Shown: positions 2,704 through 39,478 of the stretch, one piece after another
Layout of the letters: each line of letters starts with the position of its first letter
Numbering within the stretch: position 1 is the first letter of the stretch
Assembly: GCA_045612805.1 (NCBI GenBank)
Contig: JAZKZR010000008.1
Location: 6,276 to 70,275, forward strand
Origin: Candidatus Enterousia sp.
Lineage (GTDB): Bacteria; Pseudomonadota; Alphaproteobacteria; Rs-D84
DNA length: 64,000 nucleotides
Direction of reading: 5' to 3'
The notes under the pieces: generated by a model
What the model saw: only the letters and a program-made list of their open reading frames with translations
Databases searched by the model: none
What the model was told of the DNA's origin: nothing
Translations under genes and position numbers: made by a program

Positions 2704-4413
2704 TTATTTATTTTTATCCGTAATTGCGTTATCAAGTTTCGAATAATTTTCACTGCGCATTTCTTGCAATGTGCGGGAAATTATTTCATCGGATACACCA
2801 AGTTTTTCCAAAACCCCGTGCGCCAACATCAACGAAGATTCCACTGTTTCCGGCCATGCTTCTTCGACGCCTTCGTTGGTCAGTGCGCGTGATTCACACA
2901 AATTGCGCGCACGTGCAAAAATTTTCACCTTTGGTGCGATGCCCCTTATTGTTAAAACCGCATTACGCGCGGTCGCCGCATTATCAAGCGCAACAACAAC
3001 CGCACGCACGCGACGCGATGCCAAACCAAATTCACGCAAAACCGTGTGATTCGTGCTGTCGCCATAAAATACATTGTACCCATGTTCACGCCCAAGCATG
3101 ACCGCATTTACATCCAAATCAAGTGCGACGTATGGTATTTTTCGCGCACGCAAAACATGCGCAATTATTTGCCCCACACGACCGAAACCACATATTAAAA
3201 CTTCGGGTTTTGTTTCATTGTCGGTTGCGTTTAATTGGCGCATACGCGAACGTGCAAACATTTTTTTCGAACGGAAAATTTTATCGTGCAAGGTTAGCAA
3301 GAACGGCGTTGACACCATAGATAAGATTATTATCGCGGTCAAAATTTCTTGGTCCGCGGCGGGCACGGCGGAAATGCCACTGGTTTTCATTGTCTGAAAC
3401 ATCAGCAACGCGAATTCGCCGCCCTGGCTTAACACCAATGCGATAAGGCGCGCATCAAAAACCGGAATGCCACGCACGCGCGACACCATAAACAGCGCAA
3501 AGAATTTTATAAAGACCAATCCGACCATACCGCCAATAACCCAATACCAATTCCGTGCAAGCACTTCAAGATTTAATCCCATCCCAAGCGATATAAAGAA
3601 TAACGACAAAAACAATAATGCATATGGGTCGATTTCTGCGCGGACCTGGTGACTGTATATTGTTTCAGACATTAGCATACCCGCCAAAAATGCACCAAGT
3701 CCCGTCGGCAATCCCAAAAGGTTCATCAACACCGCCCAAAGTGCGATGTTTAACATGATGGCAAGTAAAAATGCCTCTTTGGATTTTAATTTTGCCACAC
3801 GTTTTAGCACCGGATTCAAAACAAAACGGCCGATTACAACAACACCCAAAATCAATGTGACCGATGTCACCGTGACATCAATCAATGTTGCACCAAGGTT
3901 AAATGAACGTCCGGCAAACACCGGTAACATGGCAAGAAGCGGAATCGACAACAAATCTTGGAACAACAAAATTGAAAAAGTTTGATGTCCCATGGTCGTG
4001 TTTAACTGATTACGGTCGGTTAGTAATTGCAGGTCTTCGGACGTACTGGACATTGCGAACAAAAGTGAAATCGTGATTGTGCCAATCACCGACCATGTTG
4101 TCATTCCAAACAGAATTGGAAACAACATCATTGCAACCATTAAAACCTGGGTCGCACCGAAACCAAAAATTGTTCGACGCATGTTCCAAAGGCGTTTTAT
4201 ATTTATTTCCAAACCGATGGTGAACCACAAAAATAAAATTCCAAGGTCGCCAAGAAATGTCCATGTAGAATTCAGTTGAAACAAATCCAAAATATATGGT
4301 CCTGATATCATACCGGCGACCAAAAATGCAACCAATGCCCCAACACGCAACGTGCGCAGCAAGAACACCAGCACAAAAATCATCGCAAAAAATATCAGGA
4401 CCGATAAAGACAA
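2704..4413 (-). CDS. CPA2-family monovalent cation/H+ antiporter with a C-terminal TrkA-N (Rossmann) domain (KefB/KefC-like)
   Basis: About 12 TM helices, then a GFGRVGQIIAHVL Rossmann motif. Confidence 0.8.
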   Translation of the reverse strand: MSLSVLIFFAMIFVLVFLLRTLRVGALVAFLVAGMISGPYILDLFQLNSTWTFLGDLGILFLWFTIGLEINIKRLWNMRRTIFGFGATQVLMVAMMLFPILFGMTTWSVIGTITISLLFAMSSTSEDLQLLTDRNQLNTTMGHQTFSILLFQDLLSIPLLAMLPVFAGRSFNLGATLIDVTVTSVTLILGVVVIGRFVLNPVLKRVAKLKSKEAFLLAIMLNIALWAVLMNLLGLPTGLGAFLAGMLMSETIYSHQVRAEIDPYALLFLSLFFISLGMGLNLEVLARNWYWVIGGMVGLVFIKFFALFMVSRVRGIPVFDARLIALVLSQGGEFALLMFQTMKTSGISAVPAADQEILTAIIILSMVSTPFLLTLHDKIFRSKKMFARSRMRQLNATDNETKPEVLICGFGRVGQIIAHVLRARKIPYVALDLDVNAVMLGREHGYNVFYGDSTNHTVLREFGLASRRVRAVVVALDNAATARNAVLTIRGIAPKVKIFARARNLCESRALTNEGVEEAWPETVESSLMLAHGVLEKLGVSDEIISRTLQEMRSENYSKLDNAITDKNK

Positions 4414-7200: not shown

Positions 7201-8985
7201 TTATTTTTCTTCCTGTAAAAATCCGCCGGATTGCATTTTCCAAAGTCGTGCGTATTCGCCACGTCGCCGTAAAAGCGCATTGTGCGTGCCGGATTCAACA
7301 ATTTTGCCGTTGTCCAAAACAACAATTCTATCCATGTTGCGTAATGTCGAAAGACGGTGTGCAATCGCGATTGTTGTTCGGTCATGCGACAATTTTTCAA
7401 ACGAATGTTGAATTGCAACCTCGGTTTCACTGTCCAGTGCGGATGTCGCCTCGTCAAGAATCAAAATCGGTGCATCTTTCAAAAACGCGCGTGCAATTGC
7501 GATGCGCTGACGTTGACCACCCGACATTTTTATTCCGCGGTCACCAACCAGTGTATCGTATTTCTTTTCCGTGCTACTGATGAATTTATCCGCCGATGCA
7601 AACCGCGCCGCATTTTTGATTTCCGCGAGGGTTGCGTCGGGGCGACCATATGCGATATTTTCACGAATCGTCCGATTGAACATCGCGGGGTCTTGGGGAA
7701 TAAAGGATATATTTTCACGCAAAGATTGCTGGGTTATCGTGCGAATGTCGGTGCCATCAATTAAAATTTCACCATGTGCAACATCGTAAAAACGCATCAG
7801 TAAATTTACAAGTGTCGTTTTTCCCGCACCCGATGGCCCAACAATTCCAACGCGTTCACCGGGTTTAATAGTAAGTGTCAAATCGCGCAAGACATATTTA
7901 TTTTTATATTTGAATGAAACATTTTTGAATTCAATTTTGCCACGTTTAACAACCAAATCCGGCGCATTCGGGGCATCGACCACTGTCAACGGGGTTGATA
8001 GTTCTTTATACCCCTTGTTCGCCGAAGCCATGCCATCAATTACAGTTGGTATTTTATTAATCAGGTTGCTTATCATACCCATAACATTATAATATACCGC
8101 CATACTGTAAACTATATCAGAAATTTTCATCATTCCGCGCGAATATAGGTATGCGCATAATACCAATGTTGCGCCAAACATAGCATCCCAGAAATATATC
8201 GGAACCGCCCATGATAAACGTTGCCAAAACGCGGCTGTCCTTATTGCCTGCACATGATCTTCACGCGGTTTCTCTAAATAGTCGTGTTCGTGCGTTTCGC
8301 CCGCAAAAAGTTTTACCGCTGTTTGATTTGCAAATCCGTCTAAAATTTTACCCGACAAAGCCGAATCTGTGCTGGCGCGGGTTTCAGCCGATTTTTTAAT
8401 TTTCTTGCGCAAAGCCCACACAAATCCGCCACGCAATATGAACATAATTATAAACGTCCACGCAATGTATTTGTTCACGGTAAATAATAATGTTGAATTT
8501 ATGGCAATCATTATTACACGCAAACATATCGCCCATACTTCTTGGATTAGTGTTTGCGCCCCATTTTGAACAAATCGTAAATTTGCGCTTACCGACCCAG
8601 CCATACGATTTACCCAAAACACCATAGATTGCAAATGAACATAATCGGTCAATACAGACGATATACGTTTGTTAACGTATGGTGTCATAACAGATAGACT
8701 GCGATTGCTTAAAATAGCAATTGTTGAGAAACTCATTTGTATACCAACCAGTAATAAAATTGTCGGCATTACATGGTGATATATTGCTGTCCCAAGTGGT
8801 GCACCTTCAAACATGGCGACTATCCACCGTTCAATAAATGGATAAACAACCGAACCCGAAAATTCTAAAAAACATAGAACCATAAATGGAATTATGTATT
8901 TATACAGGCCTGGAAAACACCGTTTAAAATAAAACCCAAGTAAAGTTTTTGGCATGAAATTATTTTGCGTTTCTGACTTTTTCAT
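7201..8985 (-). CDS. ABC exporter, fused permease + ATPase (MsbA/lipid A-exporter-like)
   Basis: N-terminal 6 TM, then Walker A GPSGAGKTT, signature LSGGQRQRIAIARA and Walker B ILILDEATSALD. Confidence 0.8.
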   Translation of the reverse strand: MKKSETQNNFMPKTLLGFYFKRCFPGLYKYIIPFMVLCFLEFSGSVVYPFIERWIVAMFEGAPLGTAIYHHVMPTILLLVGIQMSFSTIAILSNRSLSVMTPYVNKRISSVLTDYVHLQSMVFWVNRMAGSVSANLRFVQNGAQTLIQEVWAICLRVIMIAINSTLLFTVNKYIAWTFIIMFILRGGFVWALRKKIKKSAETRASTDSALSGKILDGFANQTAVKLFAGETHEHDYLEKPREDHVQAIRTAAFWQRLSWAVPIYFWDAMFGATLVLCAYLYSRGMMKISDIVYSMAVYYNVMGMISNLINKIPTVIDGMASANKGYKELSTPLTVVDAPNAPDLVVKRGKIEFKNVSFKYKNKYVLRDLTLTIKPGERVGIVGPSGAGKTTLVNLLMRFYDVAHGEILIDGTDIRTITQQSLRENISFIPQDPAMFNRTIRENIAYGRPDATLAEIKNAARFASADKFISSTEKKYDTLVGDRGIKMSGGQRQRIAIARAFLKDAPILILDEATSALDSETEVAIQHSFEKLSHDRTTIAIAHRLSTLRNMDRIVVLDNGKIVESGTHNALLRRRGEYARLWKMQSGGFLQEEK

Positions 8986-9065
8986 ATGAATATTCCCCCA
9001 CGATACAAACAGTCCTATTGTGGTGCAACACCCAAAAAAACGCAAGTGCATTTTTATAAAACAGG

Positions 9066-9093
9066 TTGAAAAATAAAATAAATTGGTTAAAAT
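9066..9093 (+). promoter_or_regulatory. sigma70-like promoter for tRNA-Glu (TTGAAA-16-TAAAAT)
   Basis: Hexamers seen directly. The predicted TSS is about 7 nt before the tRNA 5' end. Confidence 0.45.
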
Positions 9094-9107
9094 TGTTCTG
9101 TTTCGCC

Positions 9108-9182
9108 GGTCCCATCGTCTAGCGGTTAGGACATCGGATTCTCATTCCGGTAACACGGGTTCGATTCCCGTTGGGACTGCCA
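9108..9182 (+). tRNA. tRNA-Glu, anticodon CUC
   Basis: Hand-folded cloverleaf aligning to E. coli tRNA-Glu (GTCTAG D-arm, GGTTCGATTCC T-arm). Anticodon loop TTCTCAT, G1-U72 wobble, encoded CCA. Confidence 0.75.
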
Positions 9183-9188
9183 TAAAAA

Positions 9189-9216
9189 TTAAATTCGGCC
9201 TTGGCCGGATTTTATT
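9189..9216 (+). terminator. putative terminator after tRNA-Glu
   Basis: Hairpin attcggcc..ggccggat followed by ttttattttt. Confidence 0.45.
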
Positions 9217-9326
9217 TTTACACGTGTTTCTTGGAATCGAACCCGTGAGACACGGGTTCGAACCGTGGCCGAAAGGCAGGCGAAAGCATGCCGGCGAGCA
9301 CAGCGAGTGAGGCAAGGTGGCGAAGC

Positions 9327-9345
9327 ATTCCCGTTGGGACTGCCA
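9327..9345 (+). repeat. direct repeat of the tRNA-Glu 3' end (attcccgttgggactgcca); att-like footprint
   Basis: Exact 19-mer copy of 9164-9182, 163 bp downstream. The intervening DNA carries inverted T-arm fragments. Confidence 0.6.
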
Positions 9346-9407
9346 AATTTCGTTATTGCGCGCAAAGCGCACAATTAAGAAATTTGAGCATCGCGCCGTA
9401 GCAAAGT

Positions 9408-9803
9408 TTATCTTTTCCGTGGGTATAGATGTTCGGCGGCAAAGCCAAATTTCATAACGTTCATCGCGTTTGCGTATTCTTCGATTTCACGACGATTCAG
9501 GTCCGCACCCATAATTCCGCGCGTGTTCTTTTTATCCAATGCCGCGCGTATTTCCGGTGTGATTCCGTGAATCATCGGTTCGGTCGTGTAATCTAATTTT
9601 GCCGCAATCATGCGCACCATGTGACTTTGGTTATCAATAAACCCCAAAACATGCGGATTTAGAAAGACGGCAGCACGCATGAATTCTTCGGATGGATTTG
9701 GGGCGCGTAAAAACGCCGCGGGGCATTCCGCAATTTGCGGTAAAAGCCCCCTTTCAAATTCAGTCATATATGTCATACCGTTCATTTTAATTTTTTCCGC
9801 CAT
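9408..9803 (-). CDS. conserved hypothetical protein (131 aa)
   Basis: Intact ORF, last gene of the gyrA-merR-X co-directional set. No family recognised. Confidence 0.5.
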   Translation of the reverse strand: MAEKIKMNGMTYMTEFERGLLPQIAECPAAFLRAPNPSEEFMRAAVFLNPHVLGFIDNQSHMVRMIAAKLDYTTEPMIHGITPEIRAALDKKNTRGIMGADLNRREIEEYANAMNVMKFGFAAEHLYPRKR

Positions 9804-9814
9804 TTCTAATCCTT

Positions 9815-10273
9815 TTAATTCAGCAGTTCGCGCGCCTGGTGCAGTAAATCGACCGCGATATCCAACTTTGTTAAATCAATTGATGTGGCACCCGCGGGGC
9901 GTTCGTTCATAAAGTTATCATACACACTTTGCAACCGCGATTCCGGGTCGAAACTTTGCGGACGCGGTTCGGGACGCAACGCAGGCCGTGGGCGTGGCAC
10001 CGGTGTCCAAGACGCATTCGAATCAATCGCAGAAAATTCACCACTGCGTATCATTTTTTTGACCCCCGCGATGGTAAGCCCCCGGTTATACAATAAATCC
10101 TTTATCGTGCGCAGGCGCGCAACCATTTCGGCGCGATAATACCGTCGTCCGCCCGCACCCGCGACCGGGCGCACGACACTTGGAAATTGTTTTTCCCAAT
10201 AACGAAGTGTGTACGCTGGTATCCCAAGTTCTTGGGACACCGTATTTATTGATGCAAAATATTCGTTATCCAT
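9815..10273 (-). CDS. MerR-family transcriptional regulator
   Basis: HTH region [22 protein letters not shown]...RRYY, then a Pro/Arg-rich linker. Start taken at MDNEYF; overlaps the gyrA stop by 8 nt. Confidence 0.75.
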
Positions 10274-12998
10274 TCGTAACTTCTTCTGTTTCGGTTTCGT
10301 CTGCGCCGTCCGATTCAATAGATATTGCCGACATAACCTTTTCATTTTCCGCCGTGCGGAACAGTGTCACACCGGCGGTGCTGCGTCCGGCGATGCGAAT
10401 GTCCGATGCCGGCGTGCGGATGATTTTACCGCCGTCCGTCACCATAATAACATCGTTTTCCGCCGTAACCGGGAACGAACCCGCCACCGCGGTATTTTTC
10501 CCGCCAAGTTTGATATTTGCAAAACCGCCACCACCACGATGCGTTAGGCGATATTCATACGAACTGGTGCGCTTTCCAAATCCGTTTTCGGAAATCGTCA
10601 AAATGAATTCTTCGCGTGCCGCCAATTCCGCCATTTTCGCGTCGTCCAAGACAAGTGTTGTTGTTTCTTCTTCGTTGTCGGCCTCTTCTTCTATACCGGT
10701 GGCGGCACGACGCGCGGCGCGGCTTTGTTTCACATACGCCGCACGCACCGCGGAATCAGATTCGCCACGATTCAACATCGACATACCGATAATGCGGTCA
10801 TCTTTGCCAAGTGTGATTCCACGCACGCCCGTTGAATTGCGGCCGGCAAAGATACGAATTTCCGGAACCGGGAAACGAATACAACGCCCGCGATAGGTCG
10901 CCAAAAACACATCTTGGTCTTCGGTGCACGGCAACACGGAAACCAAACTGTCGCCATCGTCCAACTTCATTGCGATTTTTCCGTTCGCGCGAATTGAATC
11001 AAAGTCCGCCATACGATTGCGACGCACCGTTCCCGACGCCGTCACGAACATAAGGAAGTGTTCTTTGCCAGAATCCTTTATCGCCGCCACATCATCTTCG
11101 GGCACCGGCAAAATTGCGGTAATCGTTTCGTTTTCGGAAAGTGGCAACAGATTCACCAACGGCCGTCCCTTGGCCGCGGCCGCCGCCTCTGGCAATTTAT
11201 AGGTTTTTAATTTATAGCACAAACCACGCGACGAGAAGAACAACAATGGCGTATGCGTGTTTGCAACGAAAACCTGAACCACATAGTCGTCATCCTTGGT
11301 CGACATTGCGTTGCGGCCCTTGCCCCCGCGTTTTTGTGCGCGGTATGTATCCAAAGACACACGTTTGATATAGCCCGTATTGGAAACGGTCACAACCATA
11401 TCTTCACGGGCAATTAAATCTTCGATATCAATGTCGATTTCCGCATCAGAAATTTCCGTCCGACGTGGCGAAGCCCAATTATCGCGCACCGCGGCGGTTT
11501 CTTCACGAATAATTTGCACAATGCGTTCGTGCGACGCAAGTATGTCCAACAAATCGCGAATCTGCGCGCCCAATTCCACCAAATCCGCGTGCAATTTGTC
11601 GCGCTCAAGCCCCGTTAGCCGGTGCAATTGCAATTCCAAAATCGCACGCGCCTGGTCTTCGGACATATAGAACATGCCGTCTTTGTATTCCGTGTTTGGG
11701 TCATCAATAAGTTGAATATAATTTTCAATATCCGATGCCCGCCACCCGCGCGATACAAGTGCAATACGCGCCTCTTCTGGGTTGGCGGACGATTTAATAA
11801 GTTCAATAACTTCGTCCAAATTGCCAACCGCAACCGAAAGTCCCAACAATGTGTGTGCACGATTACGCGCCTTGTTCAAATCAAAGATTGTTCGACGGCG
11901 AATAACCTCCTCACGAAATTCAATAAACGCATCAAGGACACCGCGAACATTGAACAACATCGGCCGCCCGCGGTTTAGTGCCATCATATTCACAGGGAAA
12001 TTCGTCTGCATTTCCGTGTATTGGAACAGATGATTCAACACAACGTCCGGAATCGCATCGCGTTTCAGTTCGATAACGATACGCAAACCTTCCTTGGACG
12101 ATTCATCGCGGATTTCAGAAATACCTTCTATCTTTTTATCCTTGGTCAATTCGGCAATTTTGATAATCATTTGCGCTTTGTTTACCTGGTACGGGATTTC
12201 GTCGACAACAATCGCCTCGTGATCATGGAATTTTTCAGTATGTGTTTTTGCGCGAACAATTATCGAACCGCGTCCGGTCGTATGTGCCTTGTACGCGCCA
12301 GTGCGCCCCATGATAATCGCGCCCGTCGGAAAGTCCGGACCGGGGATAATTCCAAACAATTCATCATCGGAAATTTCCCGATTATCCAAAATCGCCAAAA
12401 TTCCATTACAAATTTCACCCAAATTATATGTCGGTACATTTGTCGCCATACCAACCGCGATACCCGAACCACCATTGACCAAGAAATTTGGAAACTTGGT
12501 CGGCAAAACAACCGGTTCTTGGAGTGTTCCGTCAAAGTTCGGTTGCCAATCAACGGTGTCTTTGTCCATATCTTCCATGAGTGACGCGCCAAGTTTTGAA
12601 AGGCGCGCTTCGGTGTAACGCATGGCGGCGGCCTTGTCCCCGTCGCGCGAACCGAAATTACCCTGCCCCTGGACCAGCATTTCGCCCATAGAGAAATCTT
12701 GACCCATGCGGACCATGGCCTCGTATATTGAACTATCGCCATGGGGATGGTATTTACCCATAACATCACCGACAATACGCGCAGATTTAACCGTTGGCTT
12801 GGTTGCCGGCGCAACATCGTTCATAACATATAAAATACGGCGGTGCACCGGTTTGCAACCGTCGCGCACATCAGGCAACGCGCGGTCAACAATAACCGAC
12901 ATCGCATAGTCCAAAAACGATGTCCGCATTTCATGTTCAATCGAAGATTGTGGAATTTTGATTGCGTTTATTTCGTTTGTATTTTCAATTTCTGACAT
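10266..12998 (-). CDS. gyrA: DNA gyrase subunit A
   Basis: Start at MSEIEN with aaggaaag SD. Contains the AMRYTEARL active-site Tyr region and C-terminal beta-pinwheel repeats; 910 aa. Confidence 0.95.
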
Positions 12999-13094
12999 GA
13001 TAAAACTTTCCTTATGTTTTTCGCATATAAAACATAGCAAATTTTTACCGCGCGGGTCAAGAAATAAAGCAAATTTTGCACACCAAAATTCAGA

Positions 13095-13123
13095 TTGACA
13101 AAGCGATTTGTTTGTAATACAGT
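13095..13123 (+). promoter_or_regulatory. candidate promoter (TTGACA-17-TACAGT)
   Basis: Perfect -35 hexamer and a 4/6 -10 hexamer upstream of the small ORF and rpmH. Confidence 0.4.
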
Positions 13124-13147
13124 TAAAATAGAACAAAAGGAAAACTT

Positions 13148-13249
13148 ATGAAATTATTTTTACCTTTTTATAATTTATTTGCGGCGTTGTTCGCGTGGCA
13201 CCTTGTTGTGTTGGCGTTGCAAAAATTGGGATTGACAAAAAGTAAATAA
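13148..13249 (+). CDS. possible small hydrophobic peptide (33 aa, [33 protein letters not shown])
   Basis: aaagga SD 8 nt upstream, a single predicted TM. Below the ORF-track size cutoff. Unproven. Confidence 0.3.
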
Positions 13250-13304
13250 AATATTTGCTTTTTTGCAAAAGGTATGGTTAAATATACACACAAAAGGATT
13301 TGAA

Positions 13305-13457
13305 ATGGCAACTAAAAGAACATATCAACCGTCAAAAACACGTCGCATTCGCACACACGGGTTCCGTGCGCGCATGGCAACCAAGGGTGGTCGCGATGTA
13401 TTAAATCGTCGCCGTGCGACGGGCCGCAAAAGAATCGCGGTTACGGCGGCAAATTAA
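13305..13457 (+). CDS. rpmH: 50S ribosomal protein L34
   Basis: [46 protein letters not shown]; SD aaaagga. Confidence 0.93.
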
Positions 13458-13485
13458 AAAAATCGCCAAATGGCGATTTTTTTTA
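13456..13485 (+). terminator. rho-independent terminator of rpmH
   Basis: aatcgccaaatggcgatt hairpin followed by a T8 run. Confidence 0.75.
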
Positions 13486-13591
13486 GTGGTTAGTGTTAGT
13501 GGCTGGTGGTTAGTGATAGCAAACAACAAAAACCGCCGGATTTCCGGCGGTTCACTAACTACTAACACTGGCCACTTAAACTAACCACTAA
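13483..13591. repeat. composite repeat copy B: TTAGTGG heptads as imperfect inverted arms around a GC hairpin
   Basis: ttagtggttagtgttagtggctggtggttagtg ... aaaccgccggatttccggcggtt ... cactaactactaacactggccacttaaactaaccactaa. The right arm supplies the last codons and the TAG stop of the 13581 gene. Confidence 0.7.
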
Positions 13592-14288
13592 TTTTTCCAT
13601 TTGTGGCGGTGATGTCGGCACCGATTTCAATTTTGCCGCCCGATTCACGCACAATCAATTCACCGGCACATATTTCCGCAAAATCAATTGTGCCGGACAT
13701 AAATGCATCAAATTTTCCCGCGGCAACCCATGCCAAATCCATCGCCGGGCAACCGGTTTCACGGACCGCACCAACGCCAAGCGGATTTCCCGCAATACCG
13801 TTGTATGCCGCCGTCATATCCGCCGGGTCTTTGATATTAGAAACGCGAATGCGCGCCGAATGAAATGCCGAATATGCAAATGCGCCCGCGCCCGATTCCG
13901 CATAATACAGATATTCATCAATTGGGGAATATATAAGTGCGATTTTCGTTTCATAACCCGTGCGCAGTGCAAGTGATATCGCAAATCGTGGATTTGCACG
14001 CACAAAATTTTCCGCCCCTGACAACGCCAAAACAAATTCATCGCGTCCGTCACCGTCACGCGTTAAATTCGGTGTCAAAAGTCCCGCCGACGGGCGAACA
14101 AGTGATAAATCTGATAAAATTTCTTCTTCGATTCGTGTGGCGGCACGATGCACAAAATCCCGCGCCCCGCGCAGGGATTGTTGCAGATTTTCAACTTCGC
14201 CAAAATCGTGACGCAAACCGGTTGCCGTTCGTTGCAACGCCATAAACATTTTATTCAGTTCCGGCGAACCCTTAATCAGCAAATCCAT
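13581..14288 (-). CDS. inositol monophosphatase family protein (SuhB-like)
   Basis: IMPase motifs LIYSPIDEY, WVAAGKFDAF and DFAEICAGELIV. C-terminal ...KISG* is encoded within repeat B. Confidence 0.8.
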   Translation of the reverse strand: MDLLIKGSPELNKMFMALQRTATGLRHDFGEVENLQQSLRGARDFVHRAATRIEEEILSDLSLVRPSAGLLTPNLTRDGDGRDEFVLALSGAENFVRANPRFAISLALRTGYETKIALIYSPIDEYLYYAESGAGAFAYSAFHSARIRVSNIKDPADMTAAYNGIAGNPLGVGAVRETGCPAMDLAWVAAGKFDAFMSGTIDFAEICAGELIVRESGGKIEIGADITATNGKISG

Positions 14289-39383: not shown

Positions 39384-39478
39384 GATCTCTAATCTGCCCG
39401 TCTCTGTGTGCTTCGCACACTCCGCCGCGGCACAGGATTTTCTTAATTGTGCGCGCTGCGCGCAATAATGAAAATCCG

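Follow-up and report, generated by a model that had tools for sequence, protein, structure and literature searches.

What kind of DNA settles directly behind the CCA end of a tRNA gene, leaves the tRNA whole, and finishes in a second copy of the tRNA's own tail? The question is raised by a 64,000-nucleotide stretch of a Candidatus Enterousia sp. genome (assembly GCA_045612805.1, contig JAZKZR010000008.1, positions 6,276 to 70,275 of the forward strand; hereafter the window), where one tRNA-Glu(CTC) gene at 9108–9182 (+), with its CCA encoded (ARAGORN; Rfam RF00005, 61.7 bits), is followed by a 144-bp insert and then by an isolated repeat of its last 19 nt. The original prediction, made from this DNA by itself, read the arrangement as the footprint of an integrase-mediated insertion, either nearly lost or repeatedly renewed. 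Comparison with related loci (numbered L below) leads us instead, and tentatively, to regard the 144-bp insert (hereafter the unit) with its distal 19-mer as a candidate gene-less, nonautonomous member of a nuclease-associated family of tRNA-end mini-elements.

Three alleles at one tRNA gene

The sequence ATTCCCGTTGGGACTGCCA occurs exactly twice in the window, at 9164–9182 (+), where it closes the tRNA, covering its final 19 nt from the A of the T-loop through the CCA, and at 9327–9345 (+), where it stands alone, with a start-to-start spacing of 163. There is no further copy in the 64 kb even at 3 mismatches, and none of 100 dinucleotide-preserving shuffles matched at ≤3 mismatches; the direct repeat that the original prediction had placed 163 bp downstream is exact (19/19; 0/100 shuffles). 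That this repeat marks an insertion at the tRNA 3′ end, as was also proposed, is supported by an empty allele in locus L008, whose tRNA CCA runs directly into aatttcgttattg..., the very sequence found in the window beyond the second 19-mer; the two loci differ by a clean 163-bp indel, composed of the 144 bp and one copy of the 19-mer. Locus L005 carries the filled structure as in the window (the unit and the 19-mer), and L027, a Joint Genome Institute (JGI) rumen contig, carries the same tRNA and the same trailer (98% identity over 57 nt) but a different, 400-bp insert, which again ends in the 19-mer and encodes a GIY-YIG protein. Between identical flanks there are thus three alleles—empty (L008), unit (window and L005) and GIY-YIG element (L027)—and the 19-mer is duplicated in both filled ones. 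For the other downstream context met among these loci ("ctx B"), the matching empty site is found in L015. Presence/absence polymorphism at one site is therefore observed among close relatives. Loci L026–L028 were found via a conserved 25-mer pattern in metagenomes; the first metagenome search pattern (GGCCGAAAGGCRGGCGAAAGCATGCC) had given 0 matches.

The two inserts also have one end in common. Window positions 9302–9345, that is, 25 nt and the 19-mer, are 100% identical to L027 5522–5565, the right end of the GIY-YIG element. These 25 nt (9302–9326, +), present in the GIY-YIG element of both L027 and L028, are not tRNA-derived, and the idea that they are a decayed continuation of the tRNA copy was discarded, as they have no similarity to the tRNA. 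At the level of sequence comparison, then, the locus holds an insertion with a 19-bp tRNA-tail duplication, three alleles, and a terminus in common with a GIY-YIG element.

Structure of the insert

The left part of the insert (9183–9220, +) is an intrinsic terminator, a hairpin followed by a T-run (fold z = −4.4); it is strong, stands directly 3′ of the tRNA with its stem at 9191–9212, and is palindromic enough to serve both strands. This part is replaceable, since the copies of the unit in L024 and L026 carry a different, unrelated terminator. Further in lies an inverted copy of the 5′ half of the T-arm with the T-loop, GGAATCGAACCCGTG at 9233–9247 (−), which is the perfect reverse complement of tRNA 9154–9168 (CACGGGTTCGATTCC; 0/500 shuffles), followed by ACACGGGTTCGA at 9250–9261 (+), equal to tRNA 9153–9164, which repeats in direct orientation the T-arm 5′ half as far as the T-loop. 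The palindrome of inverted and direct T-arm fragments noted in the original prediction is accordingly real (15 nt and 12 nt, both perfect), and the two fragments form an 11-bp perfect hairpin with a 3-nt loop (9237–9247/9251–9261; DNA fold −14 kcal/mol, z = −4.9). Then comes a G+C-rich filler with small GNRA-looped hairpins (ggc-GAAA-gc) at 9262–9301 (+), which is kept among copies of the unit, and then the 25-nt right terminus; the segment 9262–9326 as a whole is not significantly structured (z = −0.3).

The tRNA-derived pieces measure only 12, 15 and 19 nt, all come from the 3′ part of the tRNA, and the breakpoints of every one of them fall in or beside the T-loop; the direct fragment and the 19-mer, with 65 nt between them, jointly amount to the tRNA's entire 30-nt 3′ part, whose interruption falls inside the T-loop. 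The distal 19-mer is probably the displaced original tRNA end. It is an isolated fragment and not part of a second tRNA gene: ARAGORN and Rfam at E ≤ 10 found no second tRNA, tmRNA or other Rfam family in 9183–9500, which disposes of a second, split or intron-bearing tRNA and of a permuted tmRNA, and at the same threshold the Rfam matches within 8950–9500 are chance-level only. The arms of the insert read taaaaattaaattcggcc... after the tRNA and ...ggcaaggtggcgaagc before the 19-mer, and the predicted attP or circle junction would read ...ggcaaggtggcgaagcATTCCCGTTGGGACTGCCAtaaaaatt. Most of the insert lies behind the terminator, with no visible promoter of its own. The ends of the insert (taaaaatt.../...ggcgaagc) are not inverted repeats, and the flanking duplication is 19 bp. 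Beyond the second 19-mer follows the trailer module "ctx A" (9346–9402, +), with a hairpin at 9344–9386 and then gagcatcgcgccgtagc.

The insert as a recurring unit

Is the insert merely what was left when something larger was deleted? Copies of the unit were found in L005, L006, L007, L020/L021 and L022/L023, with two each in L024 and L026, and they are 93–99% identical across genomes whose adjacent gene, a 131-aa open reading frame (ORF), is only 84–96% identical. The two identities are discordant: between the window and L020 the unit is 99.4% and the 131-aa gene 87.4% identical, and between the window and L006 the figures are 93.9% and 95.5%. The unit occurs in at least three flank combinations, with ctx A to its right in L005 and the window, ctx B to its right in L006, L007, L020 and L022, and to its left either the tRNA itself or, in L020, L024 and L026, the end of a single-gene module (...gtatgtcCTGCCA). 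The distant copies in L024 and L026 keep a core of ~99 nt and the 19-mer at ~86% identity. In these two loci the tRNA-Glu has a compensated T-stem change (acaTggg...cccAtt), and all three tRNA-derived pieces of the unit carry the change of the resident tRNA (cccAtg in the inverted piece).

The picture of a nearly lost element, which the short intervening DNA had suggested, is probably wrong, given that the unit recurs at this identity, in these flank combinations and twice in one array (the L024/L026 array; there is one unit in the window). As judged from its copies, the unit is an entity and not random debris. It was also considered as a piece of a phage or plasmid and rejected as such, with no match for the 144 bp in phage records and only chance-level matches of 30 nt in plasmids; an internal 28-mer of the unit is absent from IMG/VR. 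In L024 (4917–5327) and L026 (7997–8407) a called 136-aa "gene" overlaps the gene-less unit and the 19-mer, and is probably a spurious ORF call across the repeat.

A family of GIY-YIG elements at tRNA ends

The 400-bp insert of L027 consists of a long hairpin of ~100 nt (tccgctttcgc..., flush after the CCA, z = −4.6), one ORF and a short tail. From its conserved ATG the ORF encodes 79 aa with a Pfam GIY-YIG match (E = 1e-14); among proteins of solved structure the product is closest to BH0048, a stand-alone UPF0213 protein, and to SLX1, a structure-specific endonuclease of eukaryotes. No domain beyond GIY-YIG was detected in the protein, nor did any NCBIfam model match it. Stand-alone prokaryotic Slx1-like proteins are the minimal form of the GIY-YIG fold, with unknown roles (PMC1564403). 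A threshold of E ≤ 1e-5 yields at least 149 relatives of the 79-aa protein, most of them 79 aa long, and those with a named source are labelled as Alphaproteobacteria-type metagenome-assembled genomes (MAGs).

Where do these relatives reside? The genomic places of three further homologue clusters were inspected, and the host tRNAs are tRNA-Ser(CGA) for cluster P0051, tRNA-Ser(TGA) for P0072 and tRNA-Thr(GGT) for P0094. In all three clusters, at every place that shows upstream DNA, the element starts flush after the CCA with the same left hairpin tccgctttcgc.... The right end copies the tail of the host tRNA in two of the four pairs, 19/19 at tRNA-Glu (0/1000 shuffles) and 11/11 at tRNA-Ser(TGA) (1/1000 shuffles); at tRNA-Ser(CGA) there is a degenerate resemblance by eye only, which is not significant, and at tRNA-Thr(GGT) there is none. 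The visible terminal copies start in the T-loop. Taken together, the loci establish, insofar as sequence can, a GIY-YIG family attached to tRNA ends, a unit that recurs in different contexts, and breakpoints clustered in the T-loop. In the literature searched, small GIY-YIG genes linked with the 3′ ends of bacterial tRNAs are nowhere described, and this compact family of nuclease-linked tRNA-end elements seems to be undescribed.

The unit was further considered as a deletion derivative of the GIY-YIG element, which was rejected for the interior, where there is no similarity. The lone exception in that comparison is the terminator, whose reverse complement gives a weak 18/24 match to the 3′ end of the ORF (6/500 shuffles).

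Module arrays behind tRNA ends

The site has clearly seen repeated use, as the original prediction had allowed: relatives carry chains of small modules behind tRNA-Glu, each with a CCA-terminated stretch at its tRNA-distal end. For the unit and the GIY-YIG element this stretch is the perfect 19-mer, and for ctx A it is ...ggatGCCA. Other modules are single-gene cassettes with varied cargo (177, 282 or 292 aa) that share a conserved end of ~70 nt beside the gene start, ctttcccaaa..gcaacaa...agttcgKgaattgcacagtatgYMCTGCCA, a degenerate look-alike of the tRNA-Glu 3′ end, which abuts the next module exactly at the position that a tRNA CCA would take. Such ends lie in L002 (3540–3690), L020 (1445–1530 and 2466–2553), L022 (3860–3950), L024/L026, L028 (320–393) and L007 (4565–4640). 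No Pfam family was found for the 282-aa protein, which was scanned, and none is on record for the 292-aa and 177-aa products. In L022 the order is tRNA, unit with 19-mer, ctx B with the 282-aa gene and ...ACTGCCA, and then another trailer; in L028 a cassette end (...CCTGCCA) is followed by the GIY-YIG element with its 19-mer. The module hairpins (AGTTCG...CGAACT) were compared with integron attC sites, and this candidate was dropped, as they do not conform to the core consensus of attC and intI is absent.

From the tRNA to merR the DNA otherwise varies extremely among relatives and may hold a hydrolase, a major facilitator superfamily (MFS) transporter, a phosphorylase-superfamily protein (PNP_UDP_1), a leucine-rich repeat (LRR) protein, or GmrSD and a methylase. 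The last of these, lying between merR and the tRNA-Glu array (L024 1216–3358/L026 4296–6450) and consisting of an EcoRI-type methylase with a GmrSD/HNH nuclease, indicates that the hot spot also holds defence-type genes. The block from ctx A through the 131-aa gene, merR and gyrA to rpmH (window 9346–13580) appears inverted in L002/L003, with breakpoints in the tRNA-Glu downstream region and beside the inositol-monophosphatase gene.

A second tRNA end in the window shows a related pattern. The spacer between tRNA-Gly and tRNA-Tyr measures 95 nt at 39384–39478 vs 12 nt in L015, with the extra DNA beginning right after the tRNA-Gly CCA, and its hairpin (39439–39473) is 91% identical to the hairpin at 9348–9382 after the second 19-mer. 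The ctx A trailer is thus itself a repeated tRNA-end-associated module; a related copy also lies 3′ of the GIY-YIG element at tRNA-Ser(TGA).

Interpretation and alternatives

How might such a family work? Its members would be very small elements of rumen and gut Alphaproteobacteria that insert into the DNA for the T-loop-to-CCA end of tRNA genes, the coding ones of ~400 bp having as their sole gene the 79-aa Slx1-like GIY-YIG nuclease, apparently placed for read-in from the tRNA promoter. The putative nuclease would break the DNA of the tRNA gene at or near the T-loop, and the break would be repaired from an element-bearing copy in a homing-like manner, such that the tRNA stays intact and a second copy of its last 11–19 nt comes to lie at the far end of the insert. 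The gene-less unit would spread or be exchanged likewise, using the nuclease in trans or homologous recombination via the tRNA and the 19-mer. The T-arm palindrome may be a scar of break repair, laid down by fold-back synthesis at the self-complementary T-arm; such a palindrome fits break repair better than it does conservative site-specific recombination.

Several observations weigh against this mechanism. The unit and the GIY-YIG element share only the right 25 nt (and the 19-mer), their left ends and interiors being unrelated, and two of the four GIY-YIG/tRNA pairs are without a significant terminal tRNA copy. Neither the 64-kb window (tblastn) nor the unit-bearing loci hold a GIY-YIG gene, so action of the nuclease in trans has to be assumed. 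The 79-aa catalytic domain has no recognizable DNA-binding domain, and sequence-specific homing is not obvious for it; 19-bp duplications are not a product of classical homing; and ordinary homologous recombination among strains could yield much of the patchy distribution. For these reasons we prefer the reading of the unit as a nonautonomous member of the nuclease-associated family only tentatively. A more ambitious version, which we hold to be rather doubtful, is that undescribed minimal selfish elements (~400 bp, with an Slx1-like GIY-YIG gene only) in gut and rumen Alphaproteobacteria home to the T-loop/CCA ends of tRNA genes, duplicate the last 11–19 nt, are expressed by read-through from the tRNA promoter, spawn gene-less derivatives and build CCA-terminated arrays together with the single-gene cassettes and their ~70-nt tRNA-like end, the T-arm palindrome being the scar of the nuclease cut.

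The strongest prior belongs to the classical tyrosine integrase, with a 19-bp core at the tRNA-Glu 3′ end and everything but the att-flanking arms deleted (an "inside-out attP"), whose remnant might stay open to excision, reinsertion or exchange by an integrase with its gene elsewhere, as a minimal cis-mobilizable element (CIME). An exact T-loop-to-CCA duplication with an empty-site allele is what this would leave; a terminator supplied right after the tRNA is usual for integrative elements, the tandem CCA-terminated modules resemble tandem accretion at att sites, and crossover in the T-loop is, as Williams reportedly set out in 2002, a known sublocation for tRNA-targeting integrases. Such integrases do exist: the viral or proviral contig L001 (IMGVR_UViG_3300037607_000024), which is G+C-rich, encodes at 25–408 the catalytic C terminus of a tyrosine integrase (HDLRHTYAT...LGHHSIKFTLDQYYH) and has at 575–604, ~170 bp away, 30 nt that match the tRNA-Glu 3′ end exactly, with no tRNA present; this is a conventional int–att arrangement in an unrelated host. 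This unrelated contig is the only one in IMG/VR in which the 19-mer occurs. The comparison with related loci proposed in the original prediction returned the empty and filled alleles but no integrase: no integrase domain was found in scans of 18 window ORFs, of 10 proteins from the variable regions of relatives and of the L024/L026 arrays, and the L001 integrase fragment, compared with the window and the loci by tblastn (a weak check), matched nothing. What the related coding element encodes is a nuclease and no recombinase; the internal sequence of the unit has no match in viral contigs or phage records and short chance-level matches only in plasmid records; closely related GIY-YIG elements at four different tRNAs with the same left end are hard to square with a core-specific attP; and conservative recombination leaves the palindromic T-arm scar unexplained. 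We consider it somewhat unlikely, accordingly, that an integrase made this insertion, as the original prediction held.

Could the locus instead have arisen with no dedicated mobile element, from one local duplication of the tRNA 3′ end by replication slippage or by repair of a spontaneous break at a highly transcribed gene, later inherited and shuffled by homologous recombination, the GIY-YIG gene being a mere neighbour that borrows the promoter of the tRNA? Homology for allele exchange is available in the tRNA to one side and in conserved genes (the 131-aa ORF, merR and gyrA) to the other, the entire interval varies strongly from one relative to another, and the unit is seen at the tRNA-Glu locus only; the patchiness would also be explained. 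Yet the same architecture, flush after the CCA and with a copy of the host tRNA tail, is met again at tRNA-Ser(TGA), where the GIY-YIG gene is homologous, one array holds the unit twice, the unit is also found detached from the tRNA (L020, L024), and its tRNA-derived pieces track the resident tRNA variant, which together make a purely local origin improbable. Less probable still, to a marked degree, is a functional structured RNA or regulatory 3′ trailer, in which 9221–9345 would be transcribed and have a tRNA-like 3′ domain (T-stem halves around a 65-nt insertion, and a CCA end) or act as an antisense or decoy for tRNA-Glu. The core is 86–100% conserved across copies, one-sided changes in the predicted stems all keep a G–U or Watson–Crick pair, one pair is changed on both sides, and the tetraloop is GNRA in all copies (GAAA, GGGA, GAGA); however, a strong terminator stands between the tRNA and the segment and no promoter is seen, no Rfam family matches, shuffled sequences fold as well as the 65-nt segment does (z = −0.3), z is only −2.25 for the 130 nt as a whole, and the acceptor 3′ strand has no partner. 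The single compensatory change is the same as in the tRNA and is equally explained by copying from it, and independent changes are too few for covariation to lend support. One further candidate, tRNA-primed reverse transcription, was suggested by the start of the 19-mer at T-loop A58, as in a retroviral primer-binding site, and was set aside with no reverse transcriptase seen near any copy.

Genomic setting

The neighbouring genes are housekeeping genes—an ABC transporter (7201–9051, −), merR (9815–10345, −) and gyrA (10266–13136, −)—and a Pfam scan of size-appropriate window ORFs gave housekeeping genes only. Between the insert region and merR lies the 131-aa ORF of unknown function (9408–9803, −), for which, as for protein P0001, an exact-protein look-up gave no record; the MAGs in which it has homologues are from rumen and gut and bear the label Alphaproteobacteria or "Candidatus Enterousia", whose lineage has reduced genomes (PMC12306168). 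The window likewise belongs to a rumen alphaproteobacterium resembling "Ca. Enterousia". The tRNA sequence is identical in relatives, and its sigma-70-like promoter (TTGAAA-16-TAAAAT, 9066–9093, +) is found in the same form 5′ of their tRNA.

Side observations concern the other end of the tRNA gene. In many relatives the gap between promoter and tRNA-Glu holds a palindromic unit of ~59 bp that is missing at window 9094–9107 (L005 4794–4915, L006, L008, L012, L017 and L027 4949–5071). Its sequence, ggtcccatcgt-tctggc-ctgc-gccaga-atgacaaaacgacaatgggacc-ttgtttcgcc, duplicates the leader and the first 11 nt of tRNA-Glu; it forms tandem pairs in L005 and L027, and its inner hairpin has compensatory changes across genomes (ttctggc/gccagaa vs ttccgat/atcggaa). 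The 5′ end of the tRNA gene therefore also gathers small inserts with ~20-bp duplications. Further upstream, between the ABC transporter gene and the tRNA-Glu promoter, L004 has a G+C-rich insert of ~170 bp (4130–4300) with terminal inverted repeats gccccgcccttgcggcggggc ... gccccgccgcaagggcggggc, which the window does not have, and L006, L010 and L012 have in the same place other G+C-rich palindromic inserts with the motif cgtcattcc/ggaatgac. Elsewhere in the window, the spacer between rpmH and the inositol-monophosphatase gene (13467–13600) contains a long inverted repeat of tagtggttagtg-like units around a terminator hairpin, and L006 has a similar tagtggttagtg tract upstream of its tRNA-Glu promoter.

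Significance

For the cell itself the feature is probably of little consequence. Its effects in the window are modest: the tRNA is intact, the insert supplies a strong terminator, and the distal 19-mer is nonfunctional DNA that remains a recombination hot spot. The interest of the locus lies rather in how such repeats are read. Duplicated tRNA 3′ ends are routinely taken as integrase footprints and serve to set the borders of genomic islands; in the present case this signature goes with a family that has a minimal nuclease of the structure-specific type as its only gene, at a size of 0.14–0.4 kb that island finders ignore, and in annotation an isolated tRNA tail fragment need not signal a lost prophage. 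Were the nuclease to drive insertion, this would add a new route by which selfish DNA exploits tRNA genes as safe harbours and a first biological role for the widespread stand-alone Slx1/UPF0213 GIY-YIG proteins of bacteria, and it would explain the hot spot of gene turnover behind tRNA-Glu in these reduced gut genomes, including the restriction/defence-type genes of one relative.

Comparison with known systems

Integrase-borne islands and prophages, CIMEs included, are one parallel: there too the insert is bounded by an exact tRNA 3′ repeat, the tRNA is left whole, alleles with an empty site occur, modules can stand in tandem at one tRNA, and the breakpoint may lie in the T-loop. Unlike them, none of the family's loci examined shows an integrase, the inserts measure 0.14–1.3 kb vs kilobases to tens of kilobases, the elements at four tRNAs share a left end flush with the CCA, and the sole family-specific gene is a nuclease. 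MITEs (miniature inverted-repeat transposable elements) and palindromic intergenic repeats (repetitive extragenic palindromic, REP, or Rickettsia palindromic element, RPE-like) resemble the unit in being small, gene-less and hairpin-rich, G+C-rich in an A+T-rich spacer and, probably, in depending on a protein encoded elsewhere. Membership among the MITEs is nevertheless ruled out by the lack of terminal inverted repeats and by the duplication of 19 bp, which in MITEs is 2–10 bp; the unit, moreover, lies strictly at a tRNA end or a surrogate of one.

Free-standing GIY-YIG homing genes are a further parallel. T4 segB is such a homing endonuclease gene, located in a phage tRNA gene cluster (PMC2330249), and SegB drives segmental amplification of tRNA loci (PMC13096335); as in the present family, a GIY-YIG gene lies in or beside tRNA genes, presence is polymorphic, and break repair has been proposed as the means of spread. 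The 79-aa Slx1/UPF0213-type domain differs in having no DNA-binding domain of the kind found in I-TevI or the Seg proteins (PMC1564403). The setting here is a bacterial chromosome instead of a phage, a 19-bp target duplication is not a classical homing feature, and the window's own insert is without the nuclease ORF, which is seen only in the alternative allele of L027/L028. Mobile endonuclease ORFs of fungal mitochondria follow a similar logic. In Allomyces atp6, Paquin and colleagues are said to have found in 1994 that a mobile endonuclease ORF near the 3′ end of the gene brings a replacement end and leaves the original as a downstream remnant. Both there and here the host gene is saved by a duplicated 3′ end, the ORF is of the GIY-YIG type and the displaced fragment lies downstream, whereas the present elements differ in their bacterial tRNA target, in their much smaller size, and in having gene-less derivatives and arrays.

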